The notes under the pieces were generated by a model, which saw nothing but the letters and a program-made list of their open reading frames with translations, made no database searches and was not told the origin of the DNA. The position numbers were made by a program, and so were the translations under genes. DNA of 64,000 nt, taken from positions 3,490 to 67,489 of the forward strand of contig JANXZK010000022.1 in NCBI GenBank assembly GCA_025355565.1, read 5' to 3'. Each line of letters opens with the position of its first letter. Positions within the stretch are counted from its first letter, which is position 1. Source of the DNA: a bacterium (lineage in GTDB: Bacteria; Patescibacteriota; Minisyncoccia; Phycocordibacterales; PALSA-1337). Shown piece after piece: positions 3,802 to 59,939 of this stretch.

Positions 3802-3853
3802 AAAAGTCTCAGAGAAAAATATCCGTGCCACTGAACCGTTCTGTGAGACTTTT
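3802..3853. terminator. bidirectional stem-loop between convergent genes
   Basis: AAAAGTCTCAGAG ... CTGTGAGACTTTT is an inverted repeat matching 11 of 13, flanked by an A-run and a T-run, between the 2401..3801 (+) and 3864..6062 (-) genes. Confidence 0.45.
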
Positions 3854-3863
3854 CTAGTAACTC

Positions 3864-27132: not shown

Positions 27133-28452
27133 ATGGCATCTAGAGATTTCTTTAAAGGCAAGAGGGTTGCAGTGGTCGGATTGGGTCCATTTGGTGAGAT
27201 GGTAGAAGACGTAAAATATCTCATCAAAGCAGGTGCTCTTGTAGCGATCTATGACCTGCGAAGCGAAGCGAGACTCAAGAGTCATCTCATCTTCTTGCGT
27301 TCTATAGGATTGGCTAACTATGTTTGTGGATCTATACCTGTAGACGACCTTTTCGATATGGATATGATCATTTTGTCTCACGAATATCCGAGAGATTCAT
27401 CGTTCTTGAAAGAAGTCATCGCTAAAAAGATCCCCGTTGAATATCCGGAGACGGTATTTTTCAAACAGGCACCACCAATCAGCGTGATCGGGGTCTTGGG
27501 TATGTGTGGAAAATCGACAGTCGTCTCGATGTTAACACCGATGTTGGAGCATGCTTGTCGAGAATTCGGAGATCAAAAACTCTATTGTATCGACCCAGAA
27601 TCGGGCGAGGGTACGATGGCACATTTGAAGAAGATCAAAAGTGGTGATCTAGTCCTCATGCGTGTCACAGAACCGATGGCCATCGAACTTCATGCTATGC
27701 GCATGAGTCCACACGTGGTGATATTTACGACGCTTCCGACCAAAAGTACATACTCTGATGCCGCTTTCGAGTTGCTCGAATATCAGACTTATAACAACTT
27801 TATCATTGGTAATGATAAAGTGATCGATCTCATTCACGCATTGAAGATACAACCAAAAGCCAAAATGCTTCGTACAAAAGCAAACATCATTCCTGAATCG
27901 TGGCAATTCGTCGGTCGAGGCGATCACGATAAGGACAATGCGTCCCTCGCTCTGCAAGCCGCTCGATTGTTCAAGGTGGAAGATGATGTTGCAGAAAGGA
28001 TGTTTAAGGCATGGAAACCACTGAAGGGAAGGATGGAATTGGTTAAGAAGGTGAAGAATGTAGAATTCTATAATGATACAGCTTCGGTCGTCTCATGCTC
28101 GACGGAGGTTGCGGTAAAATCATTGTCTGAGAACAAAAATCTCGTTCTGGTCTTAGGTGGTGCGCAGACTGGTTGTGATTATAAAGAATTGTTTACCGTC
28201 ATACCGCAATATACACATGCCGTTATTCTCGTTCCAGGTTCAGGCACGATACGTGAGAGGGAGTATCTGCGAAATATGAAAGATGTGAATGTCATCTCAG
28301 CACCTTCGATAGAAGAGGCGACGCGTCTCGCCATGGAAAACGCCAAAAAAGGCGATCGGGTACTATTTAGTCCAGGTTTTGAAGCATATGGTTTTGACGG
28401 TTCGAGGCGTGAAAGGGGGGAGAGGTTTGTGAGAGCTGTGAGGAGTTTGTAG
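27133..28452 (+). CDS. murD: UDP-N-acetylmuramoylalanine--D-glutamate ligase (MurD-like Mur ligase)
   Basis: N-terminal Rossmann-like region (RVAVVGLGPFG), ATP-binding P-loop VIGVLGMCGKSTVVSML, and C-terminal GDRVLFSPGFEAYGFDGSRRERGERF, which matches the MurD C-terminus (GD-VLLSPACASFD-F-N-E-RG--F). Confidence 0.75.
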   Translation: MASRDFFKGKRVAVVGLGPFGEMVEDVKYLIKAGALVAIYDLRSEARLKSHLIFLRSIGLANYVCGSIPVDDLFDMDMIILSHEYPRDSSFLKEVIAKKIPVEYPETVFFKQAPPISVIGVLGMCGKSTVVSMLTPMLEHACREFGDQKLYCIDPESGEGTMAHLKKIKSGDLVLMRVTEPMAIELHAMRMSPHVVIFTTLPTKSTYSDAAFELLEYQTYNNFIIGNDKVIDLIHALKIQPKAKMLRTKANIIPESWQFVGRGDHDKDNASLALQAARLFKVEDDVAERMFKAWKPLKGRMELVKKVKNVEFYNDTASVVSCSTEVAVKSLSENKNLVLVLGGAQTGCDYKELFTVIPQYTHAVILVPGSGTIREREYLRNMKDVNVISAPSIEEATRLAMENAKKGDRVLFSPGFEAYGFDGSRRERGERFVRAVRSL

Positions 28453-28458
28453 TTTGTC

Positions 28459-28588
28459 GGAAAATAACAGAGAGAAGTCACCCTCGAGACACGAAAAAGT
28501 CCTGCAGGACTTTTTCTCGGCTTCAGAAATTTATTGCTATAAATTTCTTGCAGATGGTCTCTCAGATGACTTCTCTCTGTTATTTTCC
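28459..28588. repeat. 22-bp perfect inverted repeat enclosing two internal palindromes (compound hairpin between convergent genes)
   Basis: GGAAAATAACAGAGAGAAGTCA at 28459-28480 is the exact reverse complement of 28567-28588. Inside are GAAAAAGTCCTGCAGGACTTTTTC (28493-28516) and AGAAATTTATtgctATAAATTTCT (28523-28546). The right arm overlaps the 3' end of the 28580..28777 (-) CDS. Confidence 0.6.
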
Positions 28589-28847: not shown

Positions 28848-29747
28848 ATGATAATAGACGTGATCACACCACAAGAAAAATACCCAGCGCTCGCGAAAAT
28901 CATCGGTCTATCAGGATTGTATTTTAAACGCGAAGACCTGCATCCATACGGATCGCACAAAGGCCGTTCGATACCTACCATGATCGATCGATATGTGGCT
29001 AGCGGGTCGAAAGATTTCGTTATTTCATCTTCAGGTAATGCGGCACTCGCCGCGGCTTTGCATGTCAAGATGCTGAATGAGAGATCCCCAATATCTCTCT
29101 CTGTCTTCGTCGGACATCATATCGCTCCACATAAATTGGAAAAACTGAAAGCCCTGGAGGACGCAAATATTCGTGTTTTGATCAAGGAGAGGCCTCTTCA
29201 AGCGCTTACTATAGCTAGTCAGGAAGGGGCTACGGGATTACGCCAATCGACTGACGACAGCGCTCTCATAGGATACGAGGCTCTAGCGCGAGAATTGGGG
29301 CTTATACAGGGTATTGGAGCCATATTTGTAGGTACTTCTAGCGGTACTACAGCACAGGCTCTAGCAACGTATTTTAGTGCAAAAGATGGATATGGAAAAG
29401 GAGGTGGGAAGTCGGTTCAGGTCCATATCGTGCAGACCTCTGGTTGTCATCCGATCTCTGATGGAATGGAGATTTTTGATGGCAAAGAAGAAGAGTCTCT
29501 AGCTGACGCTATCGTTGACCGAACGGCGATGCGCAAATCTAGATTGGTGTCTTTGATCAAAAAAACTGGTGGCAATGCTTGGGTGGCGACGAATGATGAG
29601 ATCATCGCGGCGCGAGATATGGTTTTCGAAAATACAGGATTGGATATTTCTACGAATAGCGCGTTGTCTGTCGTCGGGGCGATGCAAGCAGTCTATCGAG
29701 GTTGGGAGATTGATGGGGATGTGGTCTGTATGATTTGCGGAGAGTAG
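28848..29747 (+). CDS. PLP-dependent enzyme, fold-type II (cysteine synthase / threonine synthase / TrpB superfamily)
   Basis: Candidate PLP-lysine motif HPYGSHKGRS, and glycine-rich GTSSGTTAQ that resembles a phosphate-binding loop. 299 aa. Confidence 0.55.
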   Translation: MIIDVITPQEKYPALAKIIGLSGLYFKREDLHPYGSHKGRSIPTMIDRYVASGSKDFVISSSGNAALAAALHVKMLNERSPISLSVFVGHHIAPHKLEKLKALEDANIRVLIKERPLQALTIASQEGATGLRQSTDDSALIGYEALARELGLIQGIGAIFVGTSSGTTAQALATYFSAKDGYGKGGGKSVQVHIVQTSGCHPISDGMEIFDGKEEESLADAIVDRTAMRKSRLVSLIKKTGGNAWVATNDEIIAARDMVFENTGLDISTNSALSVVGAMQAVYRGWEIDGDVVCMICGE

Positions 29748-29829
29748 TCATAGTACATGAACTAATCCCACATCTGCCCCCTCACTCCCTCGCAAAGAGT
29801 GCTCGGTCGTTCGAGGGTGAGATGCGGGA

Positions 29830-31293
29830 TTAGTTCATTTGACCACCTATCATTCTTACAACCTCTTCTATCATCCCCCGGAATCCATGCGAGCCGAGAA
29901 AAGCGATCACGTCGCCTTTGTTCGTATTTGAAATCAGATATTCGACGAGAGCTTTGTCGTCATCAATAAAGATAGTATTTTTTTGTGTTTTAGAAATAGT
30001 TGCAGCAAGTTCATCACCTTCCATCGGAGCCGCCGAATCATCTGAGGCAACTTTCAGTTTAGTTAAACGCGGAATGATGACTCGGTCTGCATCTCTGAAA
30101 GCATCGTCATATTTCGCAGCCGATGCTCGCTCGCGCCCACCAATATTTGGTTCGAAGATGGTGATAATTTTTCCCCCATCTTTGCCGCCATAGATTTCTT
30201 TCAGCGTCACCAGAACTGACACAGCTTTTTCTGGTGAATGGGCGATATCATCGATGACTGTTATGCCTTTCATAGTCGAGTTACCATCCAGACGTTTTTC
30301 CATTCTCCTTTTTAATCCCTTGAATTTGGCTATCGCATCGATGATCTTGTCTGATCCAATACCTATAGATGTTGCCATCGCGAAACAGCCTGTGATATTC
30401 TCTGCTTGATAGCTTCCGAGAAGGGGTGAATGTATGTGAAATGAATCACTACCATGTGAAATGCTAAAATCCATGCCCGAGGAAGATTGTTTTATATTTG
30501 AATAGGTGAAATCTGGTGATGTCGAATCGGCGCCTCGATCCCGAGTGCTGATACCATACGTAATGACCTTGCCTTTATATGAACCGATCACTCTCTCTAT
30601 TCCAACCTGTCCTGCACGTGCGACTAGCTGTCCATCTTTACCCATTATCGCCAATAATTTATCGAAGGCTTCGAAGTAGCTCGCTTCTGTCGGATACAAG
30701 TCTGCATGATCCCAGGATACGGCCGTCAAAAGCAGATGAGTCGGCCGGTAATGAAAGAATTTTGCGCGCTGGTCTGTTGGGGAACTCTTGTACTCGTCGC
30801 CTTCGAAAACGCTCCACTTGGAGTCTCCCAATTTTGCTGACGAATCGTGTGACAACGAAATACCGCCAAACATATAGCTTGGGTCCATCTGCGCTTCATT
30901 CAATATGAATGAAAGCAGTGCCGAAGAAGAAGTTTTGCCCCAAGTCCCGGAACAGACGATGGAGTTTTCTTTAACGAAATATCGCCCGAGGATTTCAGGG
31001 TATGAGAACATAGGTAAGTTGTGTTCCTTGGCGTATACAGTCTCCGGATTGTGGCTACCGGAAGCGGATCCGACCATGACGGCGTCAGGCATACCTCCTT
31101 CTACCATCTTTTCCGGATGCCAACCGGCATAAAAAGTCACACCTTGTTTTTCAAGCTCTGTTGAAACAGGAGGGAAGAAGCCTTTGTCGGAGCCGGTTAC
31201 GACAACACCGCGTCTCTTCAGGGCGATAGCGATCGCGCTCATGGCGACGCCGCAGATGCCGATAACGTGGATTTTTCTTGGTAGCTGATTCAT
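29830..31293 (-). CDS. murC: UDP-N-acetylmuramate--L-alanine ligase (MurC/Mpl-type Mur ligase)
   Basis: The N-terminal IHVIGICGVAMSAIAIALKRRG...GSD matches the MurC N-domain. It has a central ATP-binding domain and a C-terminal Mur ligase domain. Confidence 0.8.
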   Translation of the reverse strand: MNQLPRKIHVIGICGVAMSAIAIALKRRGVVVTGSDKGFFPPVSTELEKQGVTFYAGWHPEKMVEGGMPDAVMVGSASGSHNPETVYAKEHNLPMFSYPEILGRYFVKENSIVCSGTWGKTSSSALLSFILNEAQMDPSYMFGGISLSHDSSAKLGDSKWSVFEGDEYKSSPTDQRAKFFHYRPTHLLLTAVSWDHADLYPTEASYFEAFDKLLAIMGKDGQLVARAGQVGIERVIGSYKGKVITYGISTRDRGADSTSPDFTYSNIKQSSSGMDFSISHGSDSFHIHSPLLGSYQAENITGCFAMATSIGIGSDKIIDAIAKFKGLKRRMEKRLDGNSTMKGITVIDDIAHSPEKAVSVLVTLKEIYGGKDGGKIITIFEPNIGGRERASAAKYDDAFRDADRVIIPRLTKLKVASDDSAAPMEGDELAATISKTQKNTIFIDDDKALVEYLISNTNKGDVIAFLGSHGFRGMIEEVVRMIGGQMN

Positions 31294-31952
31294 GAGAGTA
31301 ATCTTTTTATAGTTTCAACATCAGTTTGCCAAGTCTTGCCATCGAACCATTCTAGTCCTTCGAATTGGAGTTTGTATAGGCTTGATCGATTTTGCAGGGA
31401 GCCGAGATAGATGTATTCGAGTCCATCTCTTTTGGCTTGATCGATCGCCGCTGTCATCATGCCAAGTCCCATATCTTTTGGTGATTTCATTAGATCATAA
31501 AATGGATATGAATAGTGCATCAATCTAGATATTTTATCCACGTACGTGATCGCGTATCCTAGAGTAGCATTATCTTTTGTGAATGAGATCAGAGTATTGA
31601 AATTGCTCTTTGTCACATCGGTGAGCATTTCTTTTATCTTTTGAGCACTCATGATGCCATTGCCAAATTTGGTTGAGTAAAAATCTTTTGCGAGCTTGCC
31701 GATTCGAAAGTCATATGGATTCACCGGAAATGGTAGATGTGTGTATCTCATCGCGAATCCTTCATTTTTTTTCAATATACGTCGATTCTCGCTCGATAGG
31801 GCAAATTTTCTGAGATCGATGCGCACAGAACGAGTCTGCTGCATGACACCACGGCCGAGACGAGTGAAGGCATAGCCATCGACGAACATCTTGTTGATAT
31901 TCTCGGGTGAGAAGTCGGTAATGGTTTGTTCGTTCCAGTGCAAGTAAGTCAT
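31290..31952 (-). CDS. Fem/ATE-superfamily (GNAT-fold) aminoacyl-tRNA-dependent transferase-like protein
   Basis: LGMMTAAIDQAKRDGLEYIYLGSLQNRSSLYKLQFEGLEWFDGKTW resembles the ATE_C / Bpt conserved block (G...Y-YLGY...YK--F-P-E-L-DG-W). ENRRILKKNEGF resembles the Fem K-x-R-x-x-I-x-K-A motif. Its stop overlaps the murC start by 4 bp. Confidence 0.45.
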   Translation of the reverse strand: MTYLHWNEQTITDFSPENINKMFVDGYAFTRLGRGVMQQTRSVRIDLRKFALSSENRRILKKNEGFAMRYTHLPFPVNPYDFRIGKLAKDFYSTKFGNGIMSAQKIKEMLTDVTKSNFNTLISFTKDNATLGYAITYVDKISRLMHYSYPFYDLMKSPKDMGLGMMTAAIDQAKRDGLEYIYLGSLQNRSSLYKLQFEGLEWFDGKTWQTDVETIKRLLS

Positions 31953-31964
31953 GTCTTGTGTCTT

Positions 31965-33092
31965 TCAATGAAGTGCCATCCAGAATCCGAATATTACGAA
32001 AAAGAAATGTGTGATCCAAAATCGCATGACGGTTTTCTCTTCGCTCCAACCTTTGAGCTCGAAGTGATGATGGAGAGGCGCCATGCGAAAGACTTTGCGG
32101 CCGAAAATATAACGTGAAGTGACTTGGATGACAACGCTCAGCGCTTCGATATAAAAGATGAAACCGAGGAACAATAGGGCGCTAGTTTCTCCGATCGCCA
32201 TGGCATTCACAGCGAGAAGCGCGCCCAAGCCCAAACTGCCGACATCGCCCATCATGAATCGAGCAGGTTTGATATTGAAATACGTGTATGCGACGAGCGC
32301 GCCGACAGTTGTGGCGTTTAGGATAGCGATTTCACCGAAACCATTTACCCACGAAAGAAATGTCAGGGCACTAAATGTGATGATAAGTGTCCCTCCCGCA
32401 AGTCCGTCCATACCATCTGCGATATTCACGGCGTTAGCGGTAAACATCACGATGAAGATGATGATAGGGATGATCAATATTCCCGCGTCGATGGATATGT
32501 CAAAAGGAAAATATATATAATGCCATGCAGGCCCCAATTTCGCGTAGATCCACCATGCTGTCAGGGTACCAGCGATGAATTGGAGAATGAGTTTTTCGTG
32601 CACAAAGATGCCTTTACCAGGCCTCGACCCAAACCAAACTGACATGCGTTTGAAGGCTGTCCAAGGTAAAGTGATGATGTACCAGATACGCATACGGATG
32701 TCTTTGTGGACACGTATCAGTCTCATCACGTGTCCCAATTTTCTAGAATATCTTTCGCGACCATATATATTCATAAAGTCATCGATCGCGCCCAGGGTGG
32801 CAGACAGGAGCATCACACCGATCGGAACCCATGTAAAGTTCCGAGACCAATTGAAGAATATAGTGATGATCGCGACTGTCAGAATGACGAGTAGTCCTCC
32901 CATGACTGGCGTATTGTTCTTGTATGAATGCGAACCGAGTCTTGCCAGCTCAGTTTTTGTACCTTTTACGACATGCAGTTTATAGAGGATCTTTGATAAT
33001 AAAGGAGCCCAAATGAAGGCCACAACCGCTCCTATTAACACAAAACTCAATATATAGGCCAGATCTGCCGTGCCCTGCAATATCGTTATCAT
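31965..33092 (-). CDS. mraY: phospho-N-acetylmuramoyl-pentapeptide transferase
   Basis: NAVNIADGMDGLAGG motif, ten predicted transmembrane helices and HHHFE near the C-terminus. Confidence 0.9.
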   Translation of the reverse strand: MITILQGTADLAYILSFVLIGAVVAFIWAPLLSKILYKLHVVKGTKTELARLGSHSYKNNTPVMGGLLVILTVAIITIFFNWSRNFTWVPIGVMLLSATLGAIDDFMNIYGRERYSRKLGHVMRLIRVHKDIRMRIWYIITLPWTAFKRMSVWFGSRPGKGIFVHEKLILQFIAGTLTAWWIYAKLGPAWHYIYFPFDISIDAGILIIPIIIFIVMFTANAVNIADGMDGLAGGTLIITFSALTFLSWVNGFGEIAILNATTVGALVAYTYFNIKPARFMMGDVGSLGLGALLAVNAMAIGETSALLFLGFIFYIEALSVVIQVTSRYIFGRKVFRMAPLHHHFELKGWSEEKTVMRFWITHFFFVIFGFWMALH

Positions 33093-33114
33093 GTTGGATA
33101 CAATACCACATCTA

Positions 33115-33936
33115 TCACATCCACTTCAATCTACGAACTTCAGTTTTGGACTTTGTCGCTCGAATAAAAAGACGGTTGTTCTCACCGGTCCTGCCATTTT
33201 CGTCCCACAGAGCATTTGTGATCGGTCTCCTCATATCAGCTATCTGAATGGTGCCTTGTCGTATACCGGTACCATAAATACCATCTTCCGGATAGGCGAC
33301 GGCATGTGAGTAATACAGTTTGAATGGAGTAAAATTCTGGTAGTCGATTTGATGAATAACGAGGATATGGTCACGTTCGTTATCGAAAATCTCGATTGAT
33401 CGATCGGCTGTCGGTTGGTTGGTCACAGACTGACCGGCCATCGTGATCATGTCACCTGGCTTGATCAGGTCGATCGGGACTAATAGGCTGTTTTTGTCGT
33501 GGGCGAGTGTCGCAACATCACAATTCTCTATCGGACGCAGGGAACAACGGATCTTGCCGATGATACTCGTGCAATTGATGAATGAAAGGTGCTTGTCTAT
33601 GGTGCCCCTACCGAGTTCCTGTGATTCGGCATTCAAGATATAGTAAGCAAAGCCGGAACAATCTATGCCGATATTTCTGTCAATCAATATCTTTTTTAGA
33701 GTTTTATCTGATAACTGGTCTGAAGGTAGATGGTCCCTGGTCATGATCGATTCTACCTCTTCGAATATCTCTTTTGGACTGCCTTTGCCGATGAAAGTTC
33801 TCAAGGCTATCCGTGACCGTGCCGTCTTGTTATTGAAGTACGGAACAGATGTCGTAGTCGTGCCGACAGTGAAGTGTCTGTATTGATCGATGATGGAGAG
33901 CGCGCGATTGGAAAGTATTTTGGTATTCATTGGCAC
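33115..33936 (-). CDS. hypothetical protein with an NlpC/P60-like papain-fold cysteine motif
   Basis: IGIDCSGFAYYIL resembles the NlpC/P60 catalytic Cys motif (D-C-S-G-F/L). A downstream His (DHILVIH) is a candidate catalytic partner. Confidence 0.4.
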   Translation of the reverse strand: MPMNTKILSNRALSIIDQYRHFTVGTTTTSVPYFNNKTARSRIALRTFIGKGSPKEIFEEVESIMTRDHLPSDQLSDKTLKKILIDRNIGIDCSGFAYYILNAESQELGRGTIDKHLSFINCTSIIGKIRCSLRPIENCDVATLAHDKNSLLVPIDLIKPGDMITMAGQSVTNQPTADRSIEIFDNERDHILVIHQIDYQNFTPFKLYYSHAVAYPEDGIYGTGIRQGTIQIADMRRPITNALWDENGRTGENNRLFIRATKSKTEVRRLKWM

Positions 33937-33938
33937 TA

Positions 33939-35225
33939 TTATACCGCGAGATTGAGATGCGCGCTTTTTATGGCCTCGGCGATCTCTTGGCCGTGTTTGT
34001 TAAACGAGCCGTGATCTTCCATGACGCCTTTTTCTGATTGGACACGGAGAAGGTCGGCATTGTATCCAGTGTTCTGGTAGGCGACTACTGTGTATCCGAG
34101 TTTTTGCAATTTAGCGGAAACATCATCGAATATGTCTTGGATATGTTTTGTCACGCGCTGGACGACTTGTGCGCCACCATCGATCTGGATCAGGTCTTGA
34201 TCGATAGGGAGGCCAGTGATCGCTCGGACATGAGCCTCAAAAGTAGTCAAACCTCTCGCTCCTCCCGCACGAGCTCTCTCTTGTAGCGCGGACTCGAATG
34301 TCGATGATGCTGGTTGACGCGCGTTGACTTCTATCAGGAATATGCGGCCACTCTTTTCGTGTTTGATGAGGTCTATACCAAAGAGACCTCTCCACCCTTC
34401 CGCTTGGAGTCGGGCACCGATCTCCTTTGTCATGTTATCAATATATTGTATATCATCTGTTGTAAGGAGTTTTTTTGCTAACGACCAATCGTTACCGACT
34501 GTACTAAATGAGCCATCCGTAAATGGTTGCATGCCCGTTATCTGATAGCTCACATTTCCAATCAAGATACGATTTGGGGTGATTATGACGTTCACTGTGT
34601 ATGAAGGCCCAGAGACAAAGCCACTGATGCGCGCTATCCTCTCTGGGAATTTTTCTTGTACAGCTCGGAGGTCGTCAAAAGTTTTGATGAGTATCGTGCC
34701 ATCGCCGGTGTGTCCATGATTCCACTGGATGATGAACGGGTTCTCACCTTTCCACGTGATCTGTTTGGTGACTTTGACCGCGTGCGGAGGTAAATACTTC
34801 GCGGCGAGATTACCCAACCAACGAATCTGACTGATCTTGTTCTCGACTCGCTCCGAGAGTGATGCCGCGGGGTTCAATAGTTTACAGGTCAAAAGGTTGG
34901 CTGATGTCTCAACACGGATAGTATTCTTGAAGACGAGAATAGAGATCGGAGATTGGACACTGGAGATTTGCGAACTCGTCGCGGTAGATCCTGATCTCAA
35001 TCTAGCGATCAGAGCTAGCGTGTTTCCGTGGGCCAAAAGGTCAGTCGTACCTAGGAGACCTTTTTCATTCGGTTCGACGAGTGTGACAAAATCTGGGTAT
35101 TGTGTCTGCACGATCTCGCCATATTTCGTCTTGTTGGAAACTATGTGGTAATTTTTACTTGGTTCCATGCCTAGCGCTCTTTCGATTTCTCTGGTGACGT
35201 ATATGATGATGGTGTTTGTGTTCAT
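33939..35225 (-). CDS. ATP-grasp domain ligase
   Basis: LFGIDLIKHEKSGRIFLIEVNARQPASS is the ATP-grasp C-terminal signature (E-x-N). The ATG at 35225 is preferred; the ORF track extends to a TTG at 35261. Confidence 0.6.
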   Translation of the reverse strand: MNTNTIIIYVTREIERALGMEPSKNYHIVSNKTKYGEIVQTQYPDFVTLVEPNEKGLLGTTDLLAHGNTLALIARLRSGSTATSSQISSVQSPISILVFKNTIRVETSANLLTCKLLNPAASLSERVENKISQIRWLGNLAAKYLPPHAVKVTKQITWKGENPFIIQWNHGHTGDGTILIKTFDDLRAVQEKFPERIARISGFVSGPSYTVNVIITPNRILIGNVSYQITGMQPFTDGSFSTVGNDWSLAKKLLTTDDIQYIDNMTKEIGARLQAEGWRGLFGIDLIKHEKSGRIFLIEVNARQPASSTFESALQERARAGGARGLTTFEAHVRAITGLPIDQDLIQIDGGAQVVQRVTKHIQDIFDDVSAKLQKLGYTVVAYQNTGYNADLLRVQSEKGVMEDHGSFNKHGQEIAEAIKSAHLNLAV

Positions 35226-35262
35226 AGTTTGCAGTCTAATACAAAACTGCCAGAATCTCAAT

Positions 35263-35330
35263 ACGTGCTAGACATACGTGCTAGAAATGTGTGCTAGAAA
35301 TGCAAACAGTAAACAGCAATCAGTAAACAG
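35263..35330. repeat. tandem short repeats in a divergent promoter region
   Basis: Three copies of CGTGCTAGA(A/C)AT in tandem, then two copies of CAGTAAACAG. The CAGTAAACAG motif also occurs at 24186-24256. Confidence 0.5.
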
Positions 35331-35358
35331 AAGAGCACAAATATGGTAATGTGATTTC

Positions 35359-38563: not shown

Positions 38564-40339
38564 TTGATCATAGCTCATTCCATGGACGAAAATCGCATCA
38601 CATATTTCGCGCAGACTGACGCTCGTAACAAGCGAGTGAAATTTGGCATCAAAGCCAAGGATCGAACTAGACATGTTTATGTGATCGGAAAGACGGGTAT
38701 GGGTAAGTCCACCATGCTCGAGAATATGGCCGTGCAAGACATCCAAAACGGCGAGGGGATGTGTTTTATCGATCCACATGGAAAGACTGCCGACCTCATG
38801 CTCGAATATGTCCCCAAGGAGCGTATCAGAGATGTGATATATATCGCGCCATTCGATATCGAGCACCCGATCTCATTTAATGTGCTCGAATCAGTCGATC
38901 CAGACAAGCGTCATCTAGTGTCATCGGGACTCATGAGTACATTCAAGAAGATCTGGGAGGACGCCTGGTCCGCTCGTATGGAATATATTTTGACCAATAC
39001 TTTGCTCGCCCTCCTCGAATATCCAGGCGCGACATTGCTCGGTGTGAATAGGATGCTTTCGGATAAAGCGTACAGAACAGAAGTCGTGAACAATATCAAG
39101 GACCCTTCCGTAAAAGCCTTTTGGCAAAAAGAATTTGCCAATTATACCGAGAGACAAGCGGCAGAAGCAGTACCAGCTATACAGAACAAAGTCGGTCAAT
39201 TCACCGCAAATCCGCTCATCCGCAACATGATCGGTCAGTCTGAGTCGTCATTTGATTTCCGCGAAGCGATCGATCACAGAAAGATCGTCATCATCAACTT
39301 GTCAAAGGGAAGGATAGGCGATGAGAATATGAAGCTTCTCGGAGGTCTATTGGTGACGAAGATCTATCTCGCCGCTATGTCTCGAGCTGATGTTCCGGAT
39401 AGGACGATGCAGATGTTGCCAAATTTTTACTTATACGTCGACGAGTTTCAAAATTTCGCCAATGCTTCGTTCGCCGATATCCTATCAGAAGCTCGCAAAT
39501 ACAAACTGAATCTGACGATCGCTCATCAGTATGTCGAGCAGATGGATGAGATCGTGCGTCCGGCAGTTTTCGGCAACGTTGGAACGATGATCGCATTTCG
39601 CGTCGGCGCTACGGATGCAGAGCTCATGGAAAAGGAGTTTGCTCCGCAATTCGTCATCGAAGATCTGGTCAACCTCGGTTTCGCGCAAATATATCTGAAA
39701 TTGATGATCGATGGCCTATCATCAGCTCCGTTCTCCGCGACTACGCTGCCACCGATATCGCATCCAGATCATTCATTTGTGAAAGACATCATCGCGGCGT
39801 CACGTGAGCAATTCTCCAGACCTAGAGCGGAAGTGGAGGAGGCGGTAATCAGATTCCACAATCCTGTGGTGGCCAAGACCCGTGAGGAAGTTCCCCCGAA
39901 ACGAATGGTGTCGACTTCTGCTGAAGTTGCACCTCGTTCTCCTTCGGTCCAGAGACACGATTCTGCTGAATCGCCGTCGCTCAGTCCGAAAGTCGTTTCT
40001 GTGGAACCTCCTCACAGGTCTTCCGTTTCAGGATCCGTTAAGCTATCGACTCCAGCACAGCCACCAATCCAAGTATCGACACAGGCAGCAATCCATGCAC
40101 CGGTCCACAAACCTTTTGCGCCAGTCAGTCTTTCAAATCTTGCGCCAAAGGTGGAAGCACGCGTGCCGAAGGTAGATCCGAAAGTGCCGACGAAACAGAA
40201 TGTGAGCGACCTAAAGAATGCATTGGCGGCGGTTATGAAAAAAAGTTCTGCCAAAACGGCTCCAAAAGTTACGCCTTCAAAAGATCATCCAGAAGAGATC
40301 TCTGAGGACGTATTGCGCAACGTTTTGAATGTTGATTAG
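38564..40339 (+). CDS. P-loop ATPase of the DUF87 / HerA-VirB4-VirD4 (TraG/TrwB-like) superfamily with a disordered Pro/Ser/Val/Lys-rich C-terminal tail
   Basis: Walker A VIGKTGMGKST, CFIDPHGK, and a Walker B-like LYVDEFQNF. No N-terminal transmembrane segment. The last 150 aa are low complexity. Confidence 0.6.
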   Translation: MIIAHSMDENRITYFAQTDARNKRVKFGIKAKDRTRHVYVIGKTGMGKSTMLENMAVQDIQNGEGMCFIDPHGKTADLMLEYVPKERIRDVIYIAPFDIEHPISFNVLESVDPDKRHLVSSGLMSTFKKIWEDAWSARMEYILTNTLLALLEYPGATLLGVNRMLSDKAYRTEVVNNIKDPSVKAFWQKEFANYTERQAAEAVPAIQNKVGQFTANPLIRNMIGQSESSFDFREAIDHRKIVIINLSKGRIGDENMKLLGGLLVTKIYLAAMSRADVPDRTMQMLPNFYLYVDEFQNFANASFADILSEARKYKLNLTIAHQYVEQMDEIVRPAVFGNVGTMIAFRVGATDAELMEKEFAPQFVIEDLVNLGFAQIYLKLMIDGLSSAPFSATTLPPISHPDHSFVKDIIAASREQFSRPRAEVEEAVIRFHNPVVAKTREEVPPKRMVSTSAEVAPRSPSVQRHDSAESPSLSPKVVSVEPPHRSSVSGSVKLSTPAQPPIQVSTQAAIHAPVHKPFAPVSLSNLAPKVEARVPKVDPKVPTKQNVSDLKNALAAVMKKSSAKTAPKVTPSKDHPEEISEDVLRNVLNVD

Positions 40340-41261: not shown

Positions 41262-42149
41262 CTATAGACGTATCCATGAATTAGGAATGATGTCACGGTA
41301 ATTTCTTTCGTCTTTCTGTGTCCATCTTTTTGGAGCTATCACAATCTTATCACTTTTTTTGTCGAGCCAAGCACCCCACCAGCTGAATGATGAATTGGCA
41401 ATGATGTGGTGGTTGCATAGACTCATGAGATACATTTCCTCGTAGTCAGGGATCAGAGGGGATGAAACATAAGTAGTGGGGTATTGAAACAGCATATTTT
41501 CCATTACCCAATCAATGTCATCGGAAAAAACAAATAGGTGAATGCCCGTGCCGATCTTTGAAGTGATATATTCGATAGCTTTGGAATAGTAGTCAGCATC
41601 ACATGTCCCATGATATTGATTGGTATTCAGGTCGGAAACATAATCGCCTCGGCGGACGTGCAGTGAGACACTGTGATCTGTTTTATTTATCAATCCGCTC
41701 ATATTCAGAGTTTTGGCGCTGAATGGAACGATAATTTTTAGATCATTCCGAATCTGCTGTTCCTTATCCATAAAATATTTTTGTGTTTGAAAGAATCCAT
41801 CGAGATACAGGTCTTTTCTTTTTGTGGCAAATATTTCTTCATTGAATCCGATATTGTATTGATGAAAGGATTTCGCTCTAACGAATCTCAATCCCTTTGA
41901 AATAATGCCGTATGGATATTTGGAGGCTCTGATCTCCTCTGGGGTCGCAATATCTGCCTTTATGTTAAATGTAGATAGGGAATAATGTCGCATGGTGTCG
42001 ATGCCGTTATGTTCTCCATAGCCTGCGACGTCCAATTTTAGTTGCGTAGCGCTGCCATTCTGATCTTTTTGTCGCAGCGAGAGTGCCCTTCCTGTCGCGT
42101 ACTGGAAGATTTGATTACCAAGACCGCCTTTCAGGTTTATTATGATCAT
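41262..42149 (-). CDS. glycosyltransferase family 11 (alpha-1,2-fucosyltransferase-like)
   Basis: The N-terminal IINLKGGLGNQIFQYATGRAL is GT11 motif I. Confidence 0.8.
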   Translation of the reverse strand: MIIINLKGGLGNQIFQYATGRALSLRQKDQNGSATQLKLDVAGYGEHNGIDTMRHYSLSTFNIKADIATPEEIRASKYPYGIISKGLRFVRAKSFHQYNIGFNEEIFATKRKDLYLDGFFQTQKYFMDKEQQIRNDLKIIVPFSAKTLNMSGLINKTDHSVSLHVRRGDYVSDLNTNQYHGTCDADYYSKAIEYITSKIGTGIHLFVFSDDIDWVMENMLFQYPTTYVSSPLIPDYEEMYLMSLCNHHIIANSSFSWWGAWLDKKSDKIVIAPKRWTQKDERNYRDIIPNSWIRL

Positions 42150-42152
42150 AGA

Positions 42153-43055
42153 TTATTGTAATAAATCTTTGACTAGATTTAATTTTTCTCTTGGCAAAAA
42201 GAGTATGTTTGTGTATGTATAAGAGGATTTTATATCGCATCTTTCTATGAAACCAGAATCAGACATATTGTATGACTCATAGTTCGCTTTGAGTAATAGG
42301 TCAGATGATATTTTTCTGTTTTCTGACCATTTATCGTCACCGGCCATTTCCAGTGTTATGAGAGGTCGTGACGTTTTCAGTGTTTCTTTCAGGCCTGCAA
42401 TGATCTTGTATTCCAGTCCTTCTGCATCTAATTTTATAAAATCCGGTGTTATCGAGCGCTGTTTGAAGAATTCGTCGAGCCTGATGGTTTTGGCGACGAT
42501 CTTTTTCGGTTCAAAATTTAATATCGTGCCTTCTTTGCTAGCACTGTTGTATGCTCCATATCCAGGGCCATAATCAGAAAATGAAGTTTCACCATCTTGA
42601 TCGGATGCTGCAATGTTGAAAGTGTAAACGTTGTGCTTATCTTTTATATTTTCTTTGAGTAGCTCATAGGTCCATGGCGTCGGCTCGAATGCGCAGACTT
42701 TTCCTATATTTCCCGTGAGATTGCTAGCCAGCATGGAATAGAAACCTATGTGGGCGCCAACATCAATAAAGGTTGATCCTTCTTTAAGGTACCGTAATAA
42801 GAATGCTGCCAGGTTGGCCTCGCAGTAGCCATAATAATAAAAAGTATTTGCTTCAGGCAAATAGCCTATCATCTTGTCTCCCCAAAGTGTTGCGAAAGTG
42901 ATTTTGTAAGGTTTGAGGTGGCTCGCGGCTGCTAGAATATAATATGGGAGCGTACGAAAAGGTTTTCTTAGCAACCTCGAGATTCGATTCATAGATCGGA
43001 GTTTTTCATTGCAGAATATCTCATTAAGTATGTTATTTTTCTGTATATGATCCAT
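42153..43055 (-). CDS. FkbM-family methyltransferase
   Basis: FIDVGAHIGFYSMLAS SAM-binding motif and FkbM-type architecture. Confidence 0.75.
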   Translation of the reverse strand: MDHIQKNNILNEIFCNEKLRSMNRISRLLRKPFRTLPYYILAAASHLKPYKITFATLWGDKMIGYLPEANTFYYYGYCEANLAAFLLRYLKEGSTFIDVGAHIGFYSMLASNLTGNIGKVCAFEPTPWTYELLKENIKDKHNVYTFNIAASDQDGETSFSDYGPGYGAYNSASKEGTILNFEPKKIVAKTIRLDEFFKQRSITPDFIKLDAEGLEYKIIAGLKETLKTSRPLITLEMAGDDKWSENRKISSDLLLKANYESYNMSDSGFIERCDIKSSYTYTNILFLPREKLNLVKDLLQ

Positions 43056-43067
43056 TATATTTGAATA

Positions 43068-44147
43068 TTATATCTTATCAATACTTGGTTTTTGTTGATT
43101 GCTGATAGTATCATAAAAATAGGTATTAAGAATATGTTCGGAGGTCGACTTTTTATTATTCAGATTGGCATATATGTTTATCCATTCAAGAAAAGACATC
43201 TCTTGGTCATTTCTTATAACCTTATATTCCAAACGGCGATATTCACGCTCTCGTGCATATTTATGCCAATAAATATCAATGCTTTGTGAATCAAAAATGC
43301 AAAAAAATTTGCTATAACAGTACCAGCTATCGGCAATAGTCCACGACATTTCATGCCCGATATTTTCAAGATAGTTTGCGGATAGGTATACCTCGGCAAG
43401 CCTAGCTTTGGACCAATCGCCAACAGTTTTGTTCGGAGGGTAAATTTCTCGAATATCTTGATCGATCTCCCAATATTTGATCACATCATCAGTTCGGCCA
43501 AACATTACCTGATCTGTCAGACTGTATGGACGATATTTGAATGTATTTAAGCTTGGGAAGGCGAGTCTCATCTTCTGTCTTGGATTATCTGATGGAAAAA
43601 CTTTGATAAGATTTACCAAGAAGTCTATAGCATTTGGATTGTATATTCGCAGATCAGTTCTCGTTTTAAGAATGAAATCAAAATCGAGTTCCTTTGCTCT
43701 TTTGGTAGCACTGAGGGTGGATGTAACCTGGTAATTAATATTAGCAATACCAGGCCGCGGAGGTTTCATGTTTAATATTATTTCGATATTTTCACATCGA
43801 ATTTTTCGTAAATATTCCGGATCCTCATCATCCCATGTCGATAGTAGTATTTTACAGTTAGAATATATTTTTTTATAAAGTCTGATCGTTTCCAGGGTGA
43901 ACTGATCTTTTCTGAGAAGTGGCCCCTGGATGATGATCAACACCTTGGGATGTACTATTAATGAATCTGCCACCGAGTTATTTTCTGATGCCAATTTTGG
44001 TCTTAGATGATAAGTAAAGTATTTGTTAGATATATATTCTATGAGATTTAGTGCAGCGACTCTGCAGTTTATAGATTTTATACATGTTCTGATATTATTC
44101 ATATTTTTGTTATGAGCTGTTTCAGTAAATTGGGGTAATCTGTGCAT
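43068..44147 (-). CDS. hypothetical polysaccharide-biosynthesis protein (WavE-like?)
   Basis: 359-aa ORF inside the glycan locus. Weak resemblance to LPS or capsule biosynthesis proteins of unknown function. Confidence 0.35.
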   Translation of the reverse strand: MHRLPQFTETAHNKNMNNIRTCIKSINCRVAALNLIEYISNKYFTYHLRPKLASENNSVADSLIVHPKVLIIIQGPLLRKDQFTLETIRLYKKIYSNCKILLSTWDDEDPEYLRKIRCENIEIILNMKPPRPGIANINYQVTSTLSATKRAKELDFDFILKTRTDLRIYNPNAIDFLVNLIKVFPSDNPRQKMRLAFPSLNTFKYRPYSLTDQVMFGRTDDVIKYWEIDQDIREIYPPNKTVGDWSKARLAEVYLSANYLENIGHEMSWTIADSWYCYSKFFCIFDSQSIDIYWHKYAREREYRRLEYKVIRNDQEMSFLEWINIYANLNNKKSTSEHILNTYFYDTISNQQKPSIDKI

Positions 44148-44956
44148 ATCGCATCTGGTTTAAGCAATAATATATTATCTATTCTTTTTCTGAGTTTAGC
44201 AAAGTCTCGAGCGTCCTGGTGAGATTCGTTTTTCAGAAGTCCTGGAGAAGATCCGTGAAGTTCAGGACTGACAATGGCGATTTTCAATTGCTTATCGCGT
44301 AACCTTTCGATAGTATTGAAGGTATATAATTCTTTTGTTCCGCCGTCAATATCCGATCTGTCCCATTCGTCTAACCAAACCCAGTTGAACAATTGGTCAA
44401 ATTGTAATACATCATCAACGGACATCAGAGTTCCACCTACAGCCGCATTGTATCTAAATATGTCATACTTGTGCGCTACCGAAGGGGCTAGGCAAATTGT
44501 TGGTAGGCGTTGTTTTAAATAAATGGCTGTTTCAGGTATCAGATCGAAAATGACCAATCTACTGAGTGTCTGCGGTTGTGTCTCCAAGGAGGATATTAAT
44601 ATGTTAAGATGTTTTTCATTTTGAAACTTACTTTTGAGATGCAACGCATTCAGAGGAGAAGTGCTTCTGAGAATCAACGCCAATAACTCTTCTAAATCGC
44701 AAAAATGTCCTTTCGGTAGATTAATATCTCGTATTTCTTTTGAGGTCATCTCAGAAAGCCTTTTTTGACCTACTTGTGGCACAAATCTTTTCAAGTTATC
44801 ATCATGGAATGTTATAAGCTTATCATCTTTTGAGATAATAATATCAAATTCTATTCCAAAACCCCTCGCAAGTTGATCAGAGAATGCCTCTATAGTACTT
44901 TCAGTAAAAAAAGACACATTCTCTGGTTCTAAACCTCGATGAGTCAGAATCTGCAT
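44099..44956 (-). CDS. glycerophosphodiester phosphodiesterase family protein (GDPD)
   Basis: MQILTHRGLEPEN...ESTIEAFSDQLARGFGIEFDIIISKDDKLITFHDDNL matches the GP-PDE catalytic motif pattern (HRG...E.DV....DG.....HD). Confidence 0.7.
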   Translation of the reverse strand: MQILTHRGLEPENVSFFTESTIEAFSDQLARGFGIEFDIIISKDDKLITFHDDNLKRFVPQVGQKRLSEMTSKEIRDINLPKGHFCDLEELLALILRSTSPLNALHLKSKFQNEKHLNILISSLETQPQTLSRLVIFDLIPETAIYLKQRLPTICLAPSVAHKYDIFRYNAAVGGTLMSVDDVLQFDQLFNWVWLDEWDRSDIDGGTKELYTFNTIERLRDKQLKIAIVSPELHGSSPGLLKNESHQDARDFAKLRKRIDNILLLKPDAICTDYPNLLKQLITKI

Positions 44957-44962
44957 GTAAAT

Positions 44963-45709
44963 TTATATCTTAATCTTACCTACTTCAAGTTTATTGACGA
45001 ATGCTTTCAGATCTTCTGGTGTTCCTAGACCATGCATCTTGCTGATTTCGATATCGTATATACCAACATTCTTGTTGTTTAATATCAGCTCATTATAAGT
45101 CGGACACACATAAAACTCGTTATTAAAACGGATATTTTTTTCGATCATGTTCTGGGCACTTTGCACGAAATCTGACCCTTTCTTATAATAGTATATGCCG
45201 ACTGTGGCTTTGTCAGATATAACCTTCTTCTCCGCAACTTCGATAACTAATCCTTTAGCGTCGATACGGGCGTAACTCCATTTCGGGTGAGAAGAGGGGA
45301 ATGTCATTATCAGCCCGTCACAGCTCTTTTGTTGTCCATGTTTAATGAATGCGTCTATGTTGGTTTCGACGAACTGGTCCGAGTTTGCGATCAGCAGATC
45401 GTTATCGTCGTTGATGAATCTCATCGCAGTCAAAACAGTACAGGCCGCTCCTTCCGTTATTCCATCGATCTGGATGACTTCAAACTTGTTACGCGTAGCG
45501 TTTTTTAGGACATTGAAAAAATCATACTTGTCATAATGTTCTTTTTGGCAAATGAAGATGAATCTGTGGTTGCATTTTGGTCGCAGATTGTTCACGACCA
45601 CCTCTATCATTGTCTTACTTTTGATCTCGATCAGTGGTTTAGGAAATGCATAACCAGCATCCTTGAACCTCGAACCTCTGCCTGCCATAGGAATTACTAT
45701 ATTTAACAT
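44963..45709 (-). CDS. sugar/alcohol-phosphate nucleotidyltransferase (LicC/IspD-like NTP-transferase)
   Basis: LNIVIPMAGRGSRF...FPKPL is the nucleotidyltransferase G-x-G-T-R-like motif. Confidence 0.6.
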   Translation of the reverse strand: MLNIVIPMAGRGSRFKDAGYAFPKPLIEIKSKTMIEVVVNNLRPKCNHRFIFICQKEHYDKYDFFNVLKNATRNKFEVIQIDGITEGAACTVLTAMRFINDDNDLLIANSDQFVETNIDAFIKHGQQKSCDGLIMTFPSSHPKWSYARIDAKGLVIEVAEKKVISDKATVGIYYYKKGSDFVQSAQNMIEKNIRFNNEFYVCPTYNELILNNKNVGIYDIEISKMHGLGTPEDLKAFVNKLEVGKIKI

Positions 45710-45721
45710 GTTAGTTTGATA

Positions 45722-46045
45722 TTATTGGATAATGTATTTATCATTCCTGGCAGATGGGGTCTTGATCACGGCGGTGTAGCCAGATTCGAGGCATTTGAAT
45801 TTAGATGATTCGCCTGGTTCGAGTAGTACGATATCTCCCTCGGATAATACGTCACTGTTCATATAGAATTTTCCAGTAATTATGACCGAGATCTCTTTTG
45901 CAATAGCGTGATAATGCCGTTCTTCTTCATCTCCAGTCTGATATTTCTTTATGCCAAATTCGAATTTATCTGTTTTCAATACACTGGGTTCAAAATCACC
46001 TACTAACCAGCCTCTAGTAAAGTCCTTTAATCGTTGTATTTTCAT
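45722..46045 (-). CDS. cupin-domain protein
   Basis: 107 aa containing the His-containing segment ERHYHAIAKEISVIITG. Candidate sugar-nucleotide isomerase (WxcM-like) or regulator. Confidence 0.45.
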   Translation of the reverse strand: MKIQRLKDFTRGWLVGDFEPSVLKTDKFEFGIKKYQTGDEEERHYHAIAKEISVIITGKFYMNSDVLSEGDIVLLEPGESSKFKCLESGYTAVIKTPSARNDKYIIQ

Positions 46046-46048
46046 ATA

Positions 46049-46654: not shown

Positions 46655-46686
46655 AGGACAAACTATACTCCTGGAGGGCGCTTATT

Positions 46687-47598: not shown

Positions 47599-47624
47599 GA
47601 CAGGAAGATCGATATTTATGATCG

Positions 47625-48617: not shown

Positions 48618-48628
48618 AATAGTCGTGA

Positions 48629-49093: not shown

Positions 49094-49128
49094 GTCATTT
49101 TATGTGGTGACTTTAGGCGGAACACATA

Positions 49129-50127: not shown

Positions 50128-50145
50128 AAAATTAATCGATACATA

Positions 50146-52635: not shown

Positions 52636-52697
52636 GCATCGTTTTGTTATTTTATAATGATTTCCAGTATAAGCATTTTGTCGAACATTTACAATAT

Positions 52698-59047: not shown

Positions 59048-59052
59048 ATATT

Positions 59053-59877: not shown

Positions 59878-59939
59878 ATGCCCATCCTACCATAACCTTG
59901 CTCCCTTGTTGAGTATTTGCTATTTATTCAGTATGATGT

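Follow-up and report, generated by a model that had tools for sequence, protein, structure and literature searches.

Why a peptidoglycan-precursor operon of a patescibacterial genome carries, between mraY and murC, the gene of a 220-aa protein resembling aminoacyl-tRNA transferases, with an ATP-grasp ligase gene and an NlpC/P60-like gene upstream, is the question raised by this locus, which lies in a 64-kb stretch of DNA analysed as a whole (the window). The operon is a minus-strand run of five tightly packed genes at 29830-35225, in the order ATP-grasp, NlpC/P60-like, mraY, 220-aa Bpt/ATE-like and murC (Table 1), and all five open reading frames of the original prediction were found there on that strand. 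The junction sequences, read directly, show 8 nt from the ATP-grasp stop to the P60-like ATG, 22 nt from the P60-like stop to the mraY ATG, 12 nt from the mraY stop to the Bpt-like ATG and, as had been claimed, an ATGA overlap of the Bpt-like stop with the murC start at 31293-31290. The ATP-grasp gene most likely starts, in agreement with the earlier proposal, at the ATG at 35225 (428 aa), not at the maximal-ORF TTG at 35261; for the P60-like gene, where position 33936 (a GTG) had been put forward, the ATG at 33930 (271 aa) is the most likely start, being the one from which the database gene calls and the homologs begin. The MraY and MurC-type ligase assignments are clear from sequence, the murC product reaching 208 bits with the Mpl model vs 257 bits with TIGR01082. 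No canonical ddl, murE or murF was found among the scanned ORFs of the window.

Table 1. Features of the operon and its borders (positions within the window)
Feature	Position	Strand	Remarks
ATP-grasp carboxylate-amine ligase (428 aa)	33939..35225	-	first gene of the operon; ATP-grasp_3 above cut-off
Cytoplasmic NlpC/P60 (C40)-fold protein (271 aa)	33115..33930	-	start taken as ATG at 33930; fold and invariant Cys/His
mraY (phospho-MurNAc-pentapeptide translocase)	31965..33092	-	TIGR00445 191.5 bits; Glycos_transf_4 85 bits
Bpt/ATE-like, cysteine-free aminoacyl-tRNA-transferase-fold protein (220 aa)	31290..31952	-	putative catalytic Y193-K194; basic helix S53-K62
murC-type UDP-MurNAc:L-alanine ligase (487 aa)	29830..31293	-	TIGR01082 257 bits; three Mur-ligase Pfam domains
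Divergent intergenic region, operon vs rsmI	35226..35358		probable promoter region
Inverted repeat, possible bidirectional terminator	29757..29838		24-nt arms, 34-nt loop; convergent ends of murC and a PLP-enzyme gene

The 220-aa protein had been predicted to be ATE/Fem-like; its homology to ATE/Bpt enzymes stands, the catalytic lysine being conserved, but it is not a FemABX member and has no ATE zinc finger. Its ATE_C score (23.9 bits) is just under the Pfam cut-off of 25, and the best NCBIfam Bpt equivalog score (PRK01305 models) is 56 bits vs cut-offs of 170-358, the homologs of groups 2 and 3 described below being likewise under; ATE_N gave no match in the protein vs 75.7 bits for the canonical Bpt, for which the 271-aa A. 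baumannii Bpt from plasmid/chromid records served as reference, and the FemAB profile (PF02388) gave no match at E <= 1. Homology of the ATE_C-type GNAT domain was confirmed on the predicted structure by fold search, where the top matches were ATE1, aa-PG synthases, FemX and LFTR, and the plain acetyl-CoA GNATs, which the original prediction had named as the best matches that would speak against it, ranked lower. In the predicted model all 220 residues fall into two soluble lobes, an N-terminal beta-sheet lobe and a GNAT lobe; the two-lobe ATE architecture is kept (TM 0.70 to ATE1), and the similarity to aaPGS is confined to the GNAT lobe (TM ~0.47). The hhalign comparison with canonical Bpt gave 98% (E 1.5e-13), and the sequence-only PDB searches with the family profiles A1 and A2 returned nothing useful.

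The residue pattern leads in the same direction. Y193-K194 aligns with the Y-K of Bpt and is invariant in both family alignments (A1 and A2), and at identities as low as ~26% the residues Y147, G162, Y182, G184, Y193 and K194 do not vary; in klAte1 the corresponding Y303-K304 holds the catalytic Lys, with residue roles described also for FemX (PMC9351520, PMC10115844), whose equivalent catalytic lysine is K305. The segment SSENRRILKK was aligned by hhalign to the basic segment of Bpt, and in the predicted model the helix 54-62 bears R57, R58, K61 and K62, all of them fully or almost fully conserved, as a putative tRNA-binding helix. The position matching Glu277 of klAte1, which binds the Arg side chain, is Ala169, as judged from the Bpt alignment and residue spacing, and is Gln in Bpt (PMC9351520); the remaining pocket positions are Tyr147, Met165 and Ile181 in place of the Arg/Leu pocket residues of ATE1/Bpt. 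In contrast to ATE1/Bpt, the protein has no CxxC...CC zinc finger, because it contains no cysteine at all, the Bpt segment ECHLCRQCLSC being aligned to GRGVMQQTRSV. It is also shorter, with 220 aa vs 271 aa in A. baumannii Bpt and 348-503 residues in the solved ATE1 chains. FemX, FemAB, MurM-MurN and BppA (PF02388) are also GNAT-fold aminoacyl-tRNA transferases, but the two tandem GNAT-like domains characteristic of FemABX are absent here. Since the protein is not a FemABX member and lacks the zinc finger which defines ATE/Bpt, it belongs to a family of its own, by its alignments a discrete one with its own N-terminal motif.

The family was found in Patescibacteria (Paceibacteria, Microgenomates, Dojkabacteria) and Verrucomicrobiota, and its linkage to peptidoglycan-precursor genes occurs in three independent arrangements. 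In group 1 (Paceibacteria; mraY-X-murC, X being the family member) mraY is immediately upstream in 74/74 informative loci and murC downstream in 69/69, with unrelated insertions between the Bpt-like gene and murC in about a quarter of the loci. In group 2 (Microgenomates-type CPR; murE-X-murC) murC is adjacent in 22/22 and murE upstream in 26/27 loci, the setting being a full dcw cluster, mraZ-rsmH-ftsI-murE-X-murC-murB-murA-murF-mraY. In group 3 (Verrucomicrobiota; alr-X) alr is upstream in 26 of the 32 loci. The locus L110 has murE-X, and family members without peptidoglycan neighbours occur at the locus L115 and in 6/32 loci of group 3. The operon arrangement recurs in 80 species-level genomes and is, therefore, not a chance juxtaposition; the gene order is not unique to one genome, a finding that the original prediction had named as a ground for refutation, but is present in essentially all related Paceibacteria, with an independent peptidoglycan link in two other lineages. 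The group-1 synteny spans the whole 14-kb region and, therefore, could by itself reflect shared ancestry, not selection. One in-frame Bpt-like-MurC fusion ORF was found (locus L007), a single case that could be due to a lost stop codon. The weakest matches of the representative search, considered as canonical Bpt, proved to belong to the same cysteine-less family. The literature search found no description of an ATE/Bpt-like family in CPR or dcw contexts, in accordance with the earlier remark that no such arrangement was known for a small-genome, CPR-like lineage.

Taken with somewhat more confidence than doubt, the explanation is that the 220-aa protein aminoacylates a peptidoglycan precursor in a tRNA-dependent manner, as FemX does, and that the five-gene operon comprises mraY/murC and two accessory modules; it builds on the folds, homology, conservation of the catalytic motif, gene linkage and fusions. 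The first module would be a minimal, zinc-finger-free aminoacyl-tRNA-dependent GNAT-fold transferase of the ATE/Bpt branch, a functional analogue of FemX/MurM on an ATE scaffold. An aminoacyl-tRNA would be taken up with its acceptor stem most likely on the basic helix S53-K62, the free amino group of the precursor would attack the aminoacyl ester, and the invariant Lys194 would stabilise the tetrahedral intermediate. The most plausible acceptor is the amine in the side chain of the diamino acid at position 3 of the UDP-MurNAc-peptide or lipid I/II, whereas ATE/Bpt enzymes act on a protein N-terminus; FemABX enzymes are dedicated to peptidoglycan precursors, and the mur/dcw context of the present family serves as a proxy for the same predicted role. 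Ala169 and the pocket residues Tyr147, Met165 and Ile181 suggest a donor amino acid that is probably small or neutral, and Ala-tRNA is a reasonable guess because MurC, an L-Ala ligase, and alanine racemase are the recurrent neighbours; no dedicated tRNA gene near the transferase gene recurs in 94 related loci, and the surroundings, therefore, give no clue to the donor. ATE1 depends on a Cys4 zinc finger both for its stability and for binding tRNA (PMC10115844); with that finger missing here, the use of tRNA is not guaranteed. As the original prediction suggested, the locus would thus point to non-canonical stem-peptide or cross-bridge chemistry. The MurE of group 2 looks DAP-type, and branched DAP-type peptidoglycan is uncommon, which counts against the explanation.

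Other explanations have to be weighed against it. It is unlikely that the protein is a divergent Bpt, serving these lineages as the N-degron transferase that takes a residue such as Leu from tRNA and attaches it to the N-terminal Asp/Glu of proteins for Clp degradation, with an accidental cell-wall location: Bpt and ATE1 are indeed the closest relatives by sequence and structure, the two lobes are retained and JGI labels the homologs arginyl-tRNA-protein transferase, but three independent arrangements adjoin peptidoglycan-precursor genes, unlike the aat-bpt pair of canonical bpt in Acinetobacter, and the missing Cys4 zinc finger, the score far below the equivalog cut-offs and the distinct N-terminal motif of the family also speak against it. 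The same low probability is given to an acyl-CoA-dependent GNAT that N-acetylates or otherwise acylates a peptidoglycan precursor or amino acid, having returned from tRNA to CoA after loss of the zinc finger. This would agree with the motif A of the window protein, K159-D-M-G162-L-G164, which is near Q/R-x-x-G-x-G/A (family-wide just G162 is invariant), with the sequence-profile search of the PDB, in which small acetyltransferases were the only matches, and weak ones (E 0.008), and with the Pfam Acetyltransf_6 matches in some members; the ranking of the fold search, given above, has plain acetyl-CoA GNATs below the aminoacyl-tRNA transferases.

Aminoacylation of a lipid (phosphatidylglycerol, undecaprenyl phosphate or a lipid-linked sugar), in the manner of the MprF synthase domain, would explain why the protein is coupled so tightly to MraY, a membrane enzyme, and is slightly less probable again. 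The C-terminal aaPGS domain of MprF (DUF2156), whose acceptor is a lipid hydroxyl, unlike the predicted precursor acceptor here, matches the GNAT lobe only and gives no Pfam match; the 220-aa protein carries neither a membrane nor a flippase domain, and its partners in groups 2 and 3 (MurE, MurC, Alr) are soluble. Least probable of all, and quite improbable, is that the protein transfers nothing in vivo and instead regulates or edits, sensing or deacylating (mis)charged tRNA and so tying the translation status to MurC/Alr. The constant physical association with MurC (the ATGA overlap and one fusion) is consistent with it, the pneumococcal MurM has a comparable secondary role, and a precedent exists in a peptidoglycan aminoacyl-tRNA transferase active on mischarged tRNA-Ala (PMC8040666); however, the strictly conserved catalytic Lys and the conserved N-terminal acceptor lobe favour a two-substrate transferase.

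The second module of the preferred explanation consists of the ATP-grasp and P60-like proteins, both of which bear out their original assignments. The ATP-grasp protein scores 30.4 bits with ATP-grasp_3 vs the Pfam cut-off of 23.2, and its family has an invariant E-x-N-x-R segment within LIEINARQPAS. Weak matches, far under cut-off, were obtained with NCBIfam PRK06524 in 31/31 family members and with the archaeal pseudomurein Ddl-like model in 18/31 (best 1e-7, cut-off 500 bits), and none of the members matched bacterial Ddl. Like Ddl and D-aspartate ligase, the protein is a carboxylate-amine ligase, here in a peptidoglycan operon, but it scores below every equivalog cut-off, that for Ddl included, and sequence searches gave no relative in the PDB; the D-aspartate ligase of E. 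faecium is an ATP-grasp ligase of the peptidoglycan side chain. The P60-like protein is just under the NLPC_P60 cut-off (17.4 bits vs 23), and 2/120 of its homologs listed carry a precomputed PF00877 match, but structure prediction and fold search show the papain-like alpha+beta fold of peptidoglycan DL-endopeptidases, and the C of GIDCSGF, the H of RDHILVIH and the H of YSHAV are invariant in sets of 30 and 39 sequences. This triad is that of the NlpC/P60-fold gamma-D-Glu-diamino-acid endopeptidases of the YkfC/MepS type, from which the protein differs by extra N- and C-terminal elements and the absence of a signal peptide. PDB sequence searches with both proteins, singly and as family profiles, returned nothing useful. 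The two genes stand together upstream of mraY in 62/64 informative loci and are fused in one genome (locus L073), with the Cys and His residues kept; a near known system is glutathionylspermidine/trypanothione synthetase-amidase, which has an ATP-grasp ligase and a CHAP/papain-like amidase in a single protein. The earlier view of the two as one set with mraY/murC holds in so far as the five-gene order recurs, but the pair can be separated from the transferase, to which it is not obligatorily tied (locus L067), and as a module it is confined to one Paceibacteria clade. It may act as a ligase/amidase pair on an amide bond of the peptidoglycan peptide, either in salvage or editing of the stem peptide or in the reversible addition of an extra residue.

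Around the operon, a -35/-10-like site lies at 35261-35233 (minus strand) in the intergenic region shared with rsmI, its match quality being no better than expected by chance, and scanning the operon for promoters and terminators yielded no more matches than the shuffled controls, a result that speaks neither for nor against co-transcription. Three tandem 13-nt repeats occur upstream of the operon at 35261-35299; they are not conserved in 52 related intergenic regions and were rejected as a shared regulatory element. A search for long inverted repeats on either side of the inverted PLP gene, as an indication of site-specific inversion, revealed just short hairpins at the gene ends.

To our knowledge, the only enzymes that use tRNA to add amino acids to peptidoglycan precursors are the FemABX group of Gram-positive bacteria, those of the ATE/Bpt type modify protein N-termini only, and the wall composition of CPR bacteria and Verrucomicrobia has hardly been described. 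An ATE-like family in mur/dcw clusters would join the FemABX-type wall chemistry with the ATE/Bpt scaffold, and it is a tentative proposal, to which slightly less than even credence is given, that it forms a third class, so far unrecognised, of aminoacyl transferases that use tRNA to modify peptidoglycan precursors, a class widespread in Patescibacteria and Verrucomicrobiota. If so, tRNA-dependent wall chemistry would extend to CPR bacteria and Verrucomicrobia, and these largely uncultivated lineages would make branched or amino-acid-decorated stem peptides drawing on the tRNA pool, to which Paceibacteria would add a novel ligase-amidase module that edits or salvages the peptide; the ATP-grasp/P60 pair may, thus, matter for wall-peptide building or salvage in ultra-small symbionts. 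The family is presently annotated as 'hypothetical', 'GNAT acetyltransferase' or 'arginyltransferase' and is, therefore, missed by automated metabolic reconstructions. A testable handle is offered by one soluble protein of 220 aa, whose catalytic Lys is predicted and for which candidate substrates can be named. The family would also hint at an evolution of ATE/Bpt enzymes from, or towards, small-molecule acceptors.

The close-packed set of five minus-strand genes that had been read from the ATP-grasp ligase to murC was borne out by the ORF coordinates and by direct reading of the junctions, the last of which is indeed the ATGA stop/start overlap. The gaps on the two sides of mraY are 22 nt (upstream) and 12 nt (downstream), and the ATP-grasp and P60-like genes are separated by 8 nt. 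The operon is limited by a divergent rsmI upstream and a convergent PLP-enzyme gene downstream, and Pfam and NCBIfam confirmed the identities of the ATP-grasp gene, mraY and the murC-type ligase. The Pfam matches of the other two proteins fall just short of the cut-offs, with 17.4 bits against 23 (NLPC_P60) for the P60-like protein and 23.9 bits against 25 (ATE_C) for the 220-aa protein, whose gene is hereafter designated X. Since murD, alr and murB are also encoded in the window, the canonical pathway is present. Sequence composition and the names of the organisms from which the homologs come assign the organism to the Paceibacteria/Parcubacteria portion of Patescibacteria.

Features of the peptidoglycan-precursor operon and related genes in the window
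Feature	Coordinates	Strand	Basis
ATP-grasp protein	33939-35225	minus	ORF reading; Pfam
P60-like protein	33115-33930/33936	minus	ORF reading; NLPC_P60 just below cut-off
mraY	31965-33092	minus	Pfam and NCBIfam
220-aa ORF (X)	31290-31952	minus	ATE_C just below cut-off
murC-type ligase	29830-31293	minus	Pfam and NCBIfam
murD	27133-28452
alr	9208-10401
murB	62662-63702
PLP-dependent gene	28848-29747	plus
OppA-like binding protein	6161-7912

The membership of the 220-aa protein in the ATE family, as originally proposed, falls short in the single-domain search and holds in the profile alignment, where the family profile was matched to the Bpt of Acinetobacter baumannii (98% probability, E 1.5e-13, 182 columns), a bona fide reference with 75.7 bits for ATE_N and 149.9 bits for ATE_C. 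The invariant Y193-K194 was aligned onto the Tyr-Lys pair of Bpt, with Y303-K304 of klAte1 and F304-K305 of FemX as the counterparts; this lysine stabilises the tetrahedral intermediate in klAte1 and FemX, and its mutation kills Ate1 (PMC9351520). The helix S53-K62 (SSENRRILKK) falls onto the basic helix responsible for binding the tRNA acceptor arm. By contrast, the cysteine cluster ECHLCRQCLSC of Bpt is aligned with GRGVMQQTRSV, and the window protein contains no cysteine at all, so that a zinc site of the CxxC...CC type, on which ATE1 depends for its stability and for binding tRNA (PMC10115844), cannot be formed. The arginine pocket of Ate1, formed by S255/S273/E277/Y289 and represented by Ala/Ala/Gln/Leu in Bpt (PMC9351520), was mapped by counting residues from the catalytic Lys, the spacing being constant; the corresponding positions would be Tyr147/Met165/Ala169/Ile181, which suggests an uncharged and probably small donor pocket and makes Arg an unlikely donor.

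A total of 1760 homologs of the 220-aa protein were found at E <= 1e-3 in a collection of 5.8 billion proteins, those with organism names being Patescibacteria MAGs, with a typical identity of about 60% and the invariant blocks HYSYPFYD, KDxGxxMM, YLGSLQ and YKxQFxGxxWFD. The family is compact, as only 313 clusters were matched when 1.84 billion cluster representatives were searched exhaustively, and its members are labelled in databases as 'hypothetical', 'GNAT family N-acetyltransferase' or 'arginyl-tRNA-protein transferase'. Members at 26-35% identity are longer, at about 260 aa, and carry MKxxFSExxxDYxxYxFPY at the N-terminus; they keep all core motifs and likewise lack the cysteines. The family is discrete, Cys-less and ATE-like and does not consist of decayed Bpt genes. 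One distant representative with this type of N-terminus carries ACD/OGM CPR accessions, which we take to be Woesebacteria/Microgenomates, and another is from Dojkabacteria.

The conservation of gene order in related genomes was checked by mapping the window's proteins onto 80 species-level Paceibacteria loci from GTDB genomes (group 1). There, mraY lies upstream of X in 74/74 informative loci (within 150 bp in 64) and murC downstream in 69/69 (within 150 bp in 41), with the ATP-grasp/P60 pair upstream of mraY in 62/64. However, this clade keeps synteny across all 14 kb of the neighbourhood, and the linkage in group 1 alone could therefore reflect common descent. The decisive evidence for the linkage comes from distant relatives found in metagenomes. 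Group 2 consists of 28 loci (GC about 0.40) whose Bpt-like protein and MurC are about 33% identical to those of the window, and is provisionally assigned to Microgenomates, a label drawn from family representatives and not from these loci themselves. Its gene order, mraZ-rsmH-ftsI-murE-X-murC-murB-murA-murF-mraY, places X inside a textbook dcw cluster; X is adjoined by murC in 22/22 loci and preceded by murE in 26/27, this MurE passing the DAP-type equivalog and retaining the DPR arginine. In group 3 (51 loci, GC 0.55-0.67, two cluster members being named Verrucomicrobiota), X follows the alanine racemase gene, frequently with an overlap, in 26 of the 32 informative loci. Peptidoglycan neighbours are absent beside X in the other 6/32 and in the separate locus L115, while in L110, from a lineage with a GC of 0.28, the order is murA-x-sigma-murE-X. 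One 424-aa protein of the Verrucomicrobia group (P0300) has an Ala_racemase_C domain followed by a Bpt-like domain; it is either a fusion of Alr with a Bpt-like protein or an artefact of how the overlapping alr and X genes were called.

For the non-canonical stem-peptide or cross-bridge chemistry of the original prediction, the most likely mechanism is that an aminoacyl-tRNA would be bound by the basic helix and the GNAT lobe of the transferase, and the aminoacyl group would be passed to a free amine of a peptidoglycan precursor held in the N-terminal lobe, while Lys194 would stabilise the oxyanion. On chemical grounds, the obvious acceptor would be the amine on the side chain of the position-3 diamino acid, either in UDP-MurNAc-peptide or in lipid I/II, and the protein may be regarded as an analogue of FemX/MurM that uses the ATE scaffold. 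For the donor, Ala-tRNA is a reasonable though weak guess, because the partners include MurC (the L-Ala ligase) and Alr and the predicted pocket is small and uncharged. A divergent Bpt kept in its housekeeping role is unlikely; the canonical bpt of Acinetobacter is located in the classic aat-bpt N-degron pair, whereas the X family stands beside the peptidoglycan-precursor genes. Just as unlikely is a CoA-dependent GNAT, which is favoured by the resemblance of the window's motif A (K-D-M-G-L-G) to a CoA loop, but within this motif G162 alone is conserved. An MprF-type enzyme that aminoacylates a lipid appears slightly less probable again, and the most improbable of the four is a tRNA sensor or editor without catalytic activity. 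The proposed aminoacyl transfer accounts better than any of them for the triple linkage to peptidoglycan genes, the conservation of the catalytic Lys and the resemblance of the acceptor lobe to that of ATE.

The ATP-grasp protein is a putative divergent carboxylate-amine ligase, with specific similarities limited to far-sub-threshold matches, namely to 'PRK06524' (31/31 members) and to an archaeal pseudomurein Ddl-like model (18/31); no relative was found by a sequence search of the PDB. A natural fusion of 628 aa (L073, 3573-5459) joins the ATP-grasp (residues 1-376) to a full P60 domain (residues 377-628, hhalign probability 100%) with the catalytic residues kept, and this fusion, together with the 8-nt spacing and the frequent co-occurrence, indicates that the two proteins act together. 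The arrangement recalls glutathionylspermidine synthetase/amidase. The pair would make and break a peptidoglycan-peptide amide bond, either in salvage of imported stem peptides or in a reversible side-chain addition; peptide import fits with the OppA-like binding protein encoded in the window. The pair is a module separate from the transferase, since it is lacking in loci of the type of L067, a divergent Paceibacteria relative with the order ftsI-x-murF-mraY-X-murC. The dcw-like cluster of this relative contains a UMPH-1-type pyrimidine 5'-nucleotidase (HAD) gene (3579-4430) between ftsI and murF.

Full-text literature searches yielded no description of the X family at all, nor of any ATE/Bpt-like gene located within a mur/dcw cluster. 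The kind of enzyme and the concept of tRNA-dependent peptidoglycan modification are already known, while the combination of this scaffold with the putative function, the X family and its phyletic range are new.

About a quarter of the group 1 loci have 0.5-4 kb of unrelated genes between X and murC, and this junction is a recurrent insertion point (L001, L022, L025, L046 and L058; also L021, L023, L066 and L074). The inserts include related secreted proteins of about 330-360 aa with the motif ..LTI(I/V)R.(F/Y).GG.PP(T)NS.GTGN.., opposite-strand genes for proteins of about 230 aa, putative methyltransferase-like ORFs, small ORFs in pairs and a large ORF resembling a P-loop ATPase. In a single instance (L007, 7001-9253), X and MurC form an in-frame ORF of 750 aa, which could represent a genuine fusion or the loss of a stop codon. 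The PLP-dependent gene adjoining murC, of the PALP fold and threonine-synthase/serine-dehydratase-like, is inverted in this genome; it was found in 71 of 80 related loci, where it runs in the same direction as murC, about 300 bp downstream of it. The gene may likewise belong to the cell-wall neighbourhood, encoding, e.g., a racemase or an amino-acid-modifying enzyme. Two long gene-end hairpins, at 28459-28588 after murD (32-nt arms, 66-nt loop) and at 29757-29838 between the PLP gene and murC (24-nt arms, 34-nt loop), may be terminators or repeat elements. The probable divergent promoter region between rsmI and the operon contains three tandem 13-nt repeats, (T/G)TCTAGCAC(A/G)(C/T)AT, at 35261-35299, next to a -35-like hexamer. 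None of 52 related intergenic regions has these repeats, which may be a strain-specific regulator binding site.

Elsewhere in the window, a block of lower GC (42000-59900; 0.34-0.40 against about 0.45 elsewhere) is rich in glycosyltransferases. A Wzt/Wzm-type ABC exporter is among its genes, an O-antigen-ligase/TPR protein comes after it, and the block is probably an island for surface polysaccharide. Two type IV pilin-like proteins, with an N-terminal methylation motif and a Laminin_G_3 lectin domain, and a TraG/VirD4-like coupling ATPase are encoded at 752-1594, 8237-9112 and 38564-40339; such pilin-like lectin proteins and coupling ATPases are typical of the surface/DNA-uptake apparatus of CPR episymbionts.
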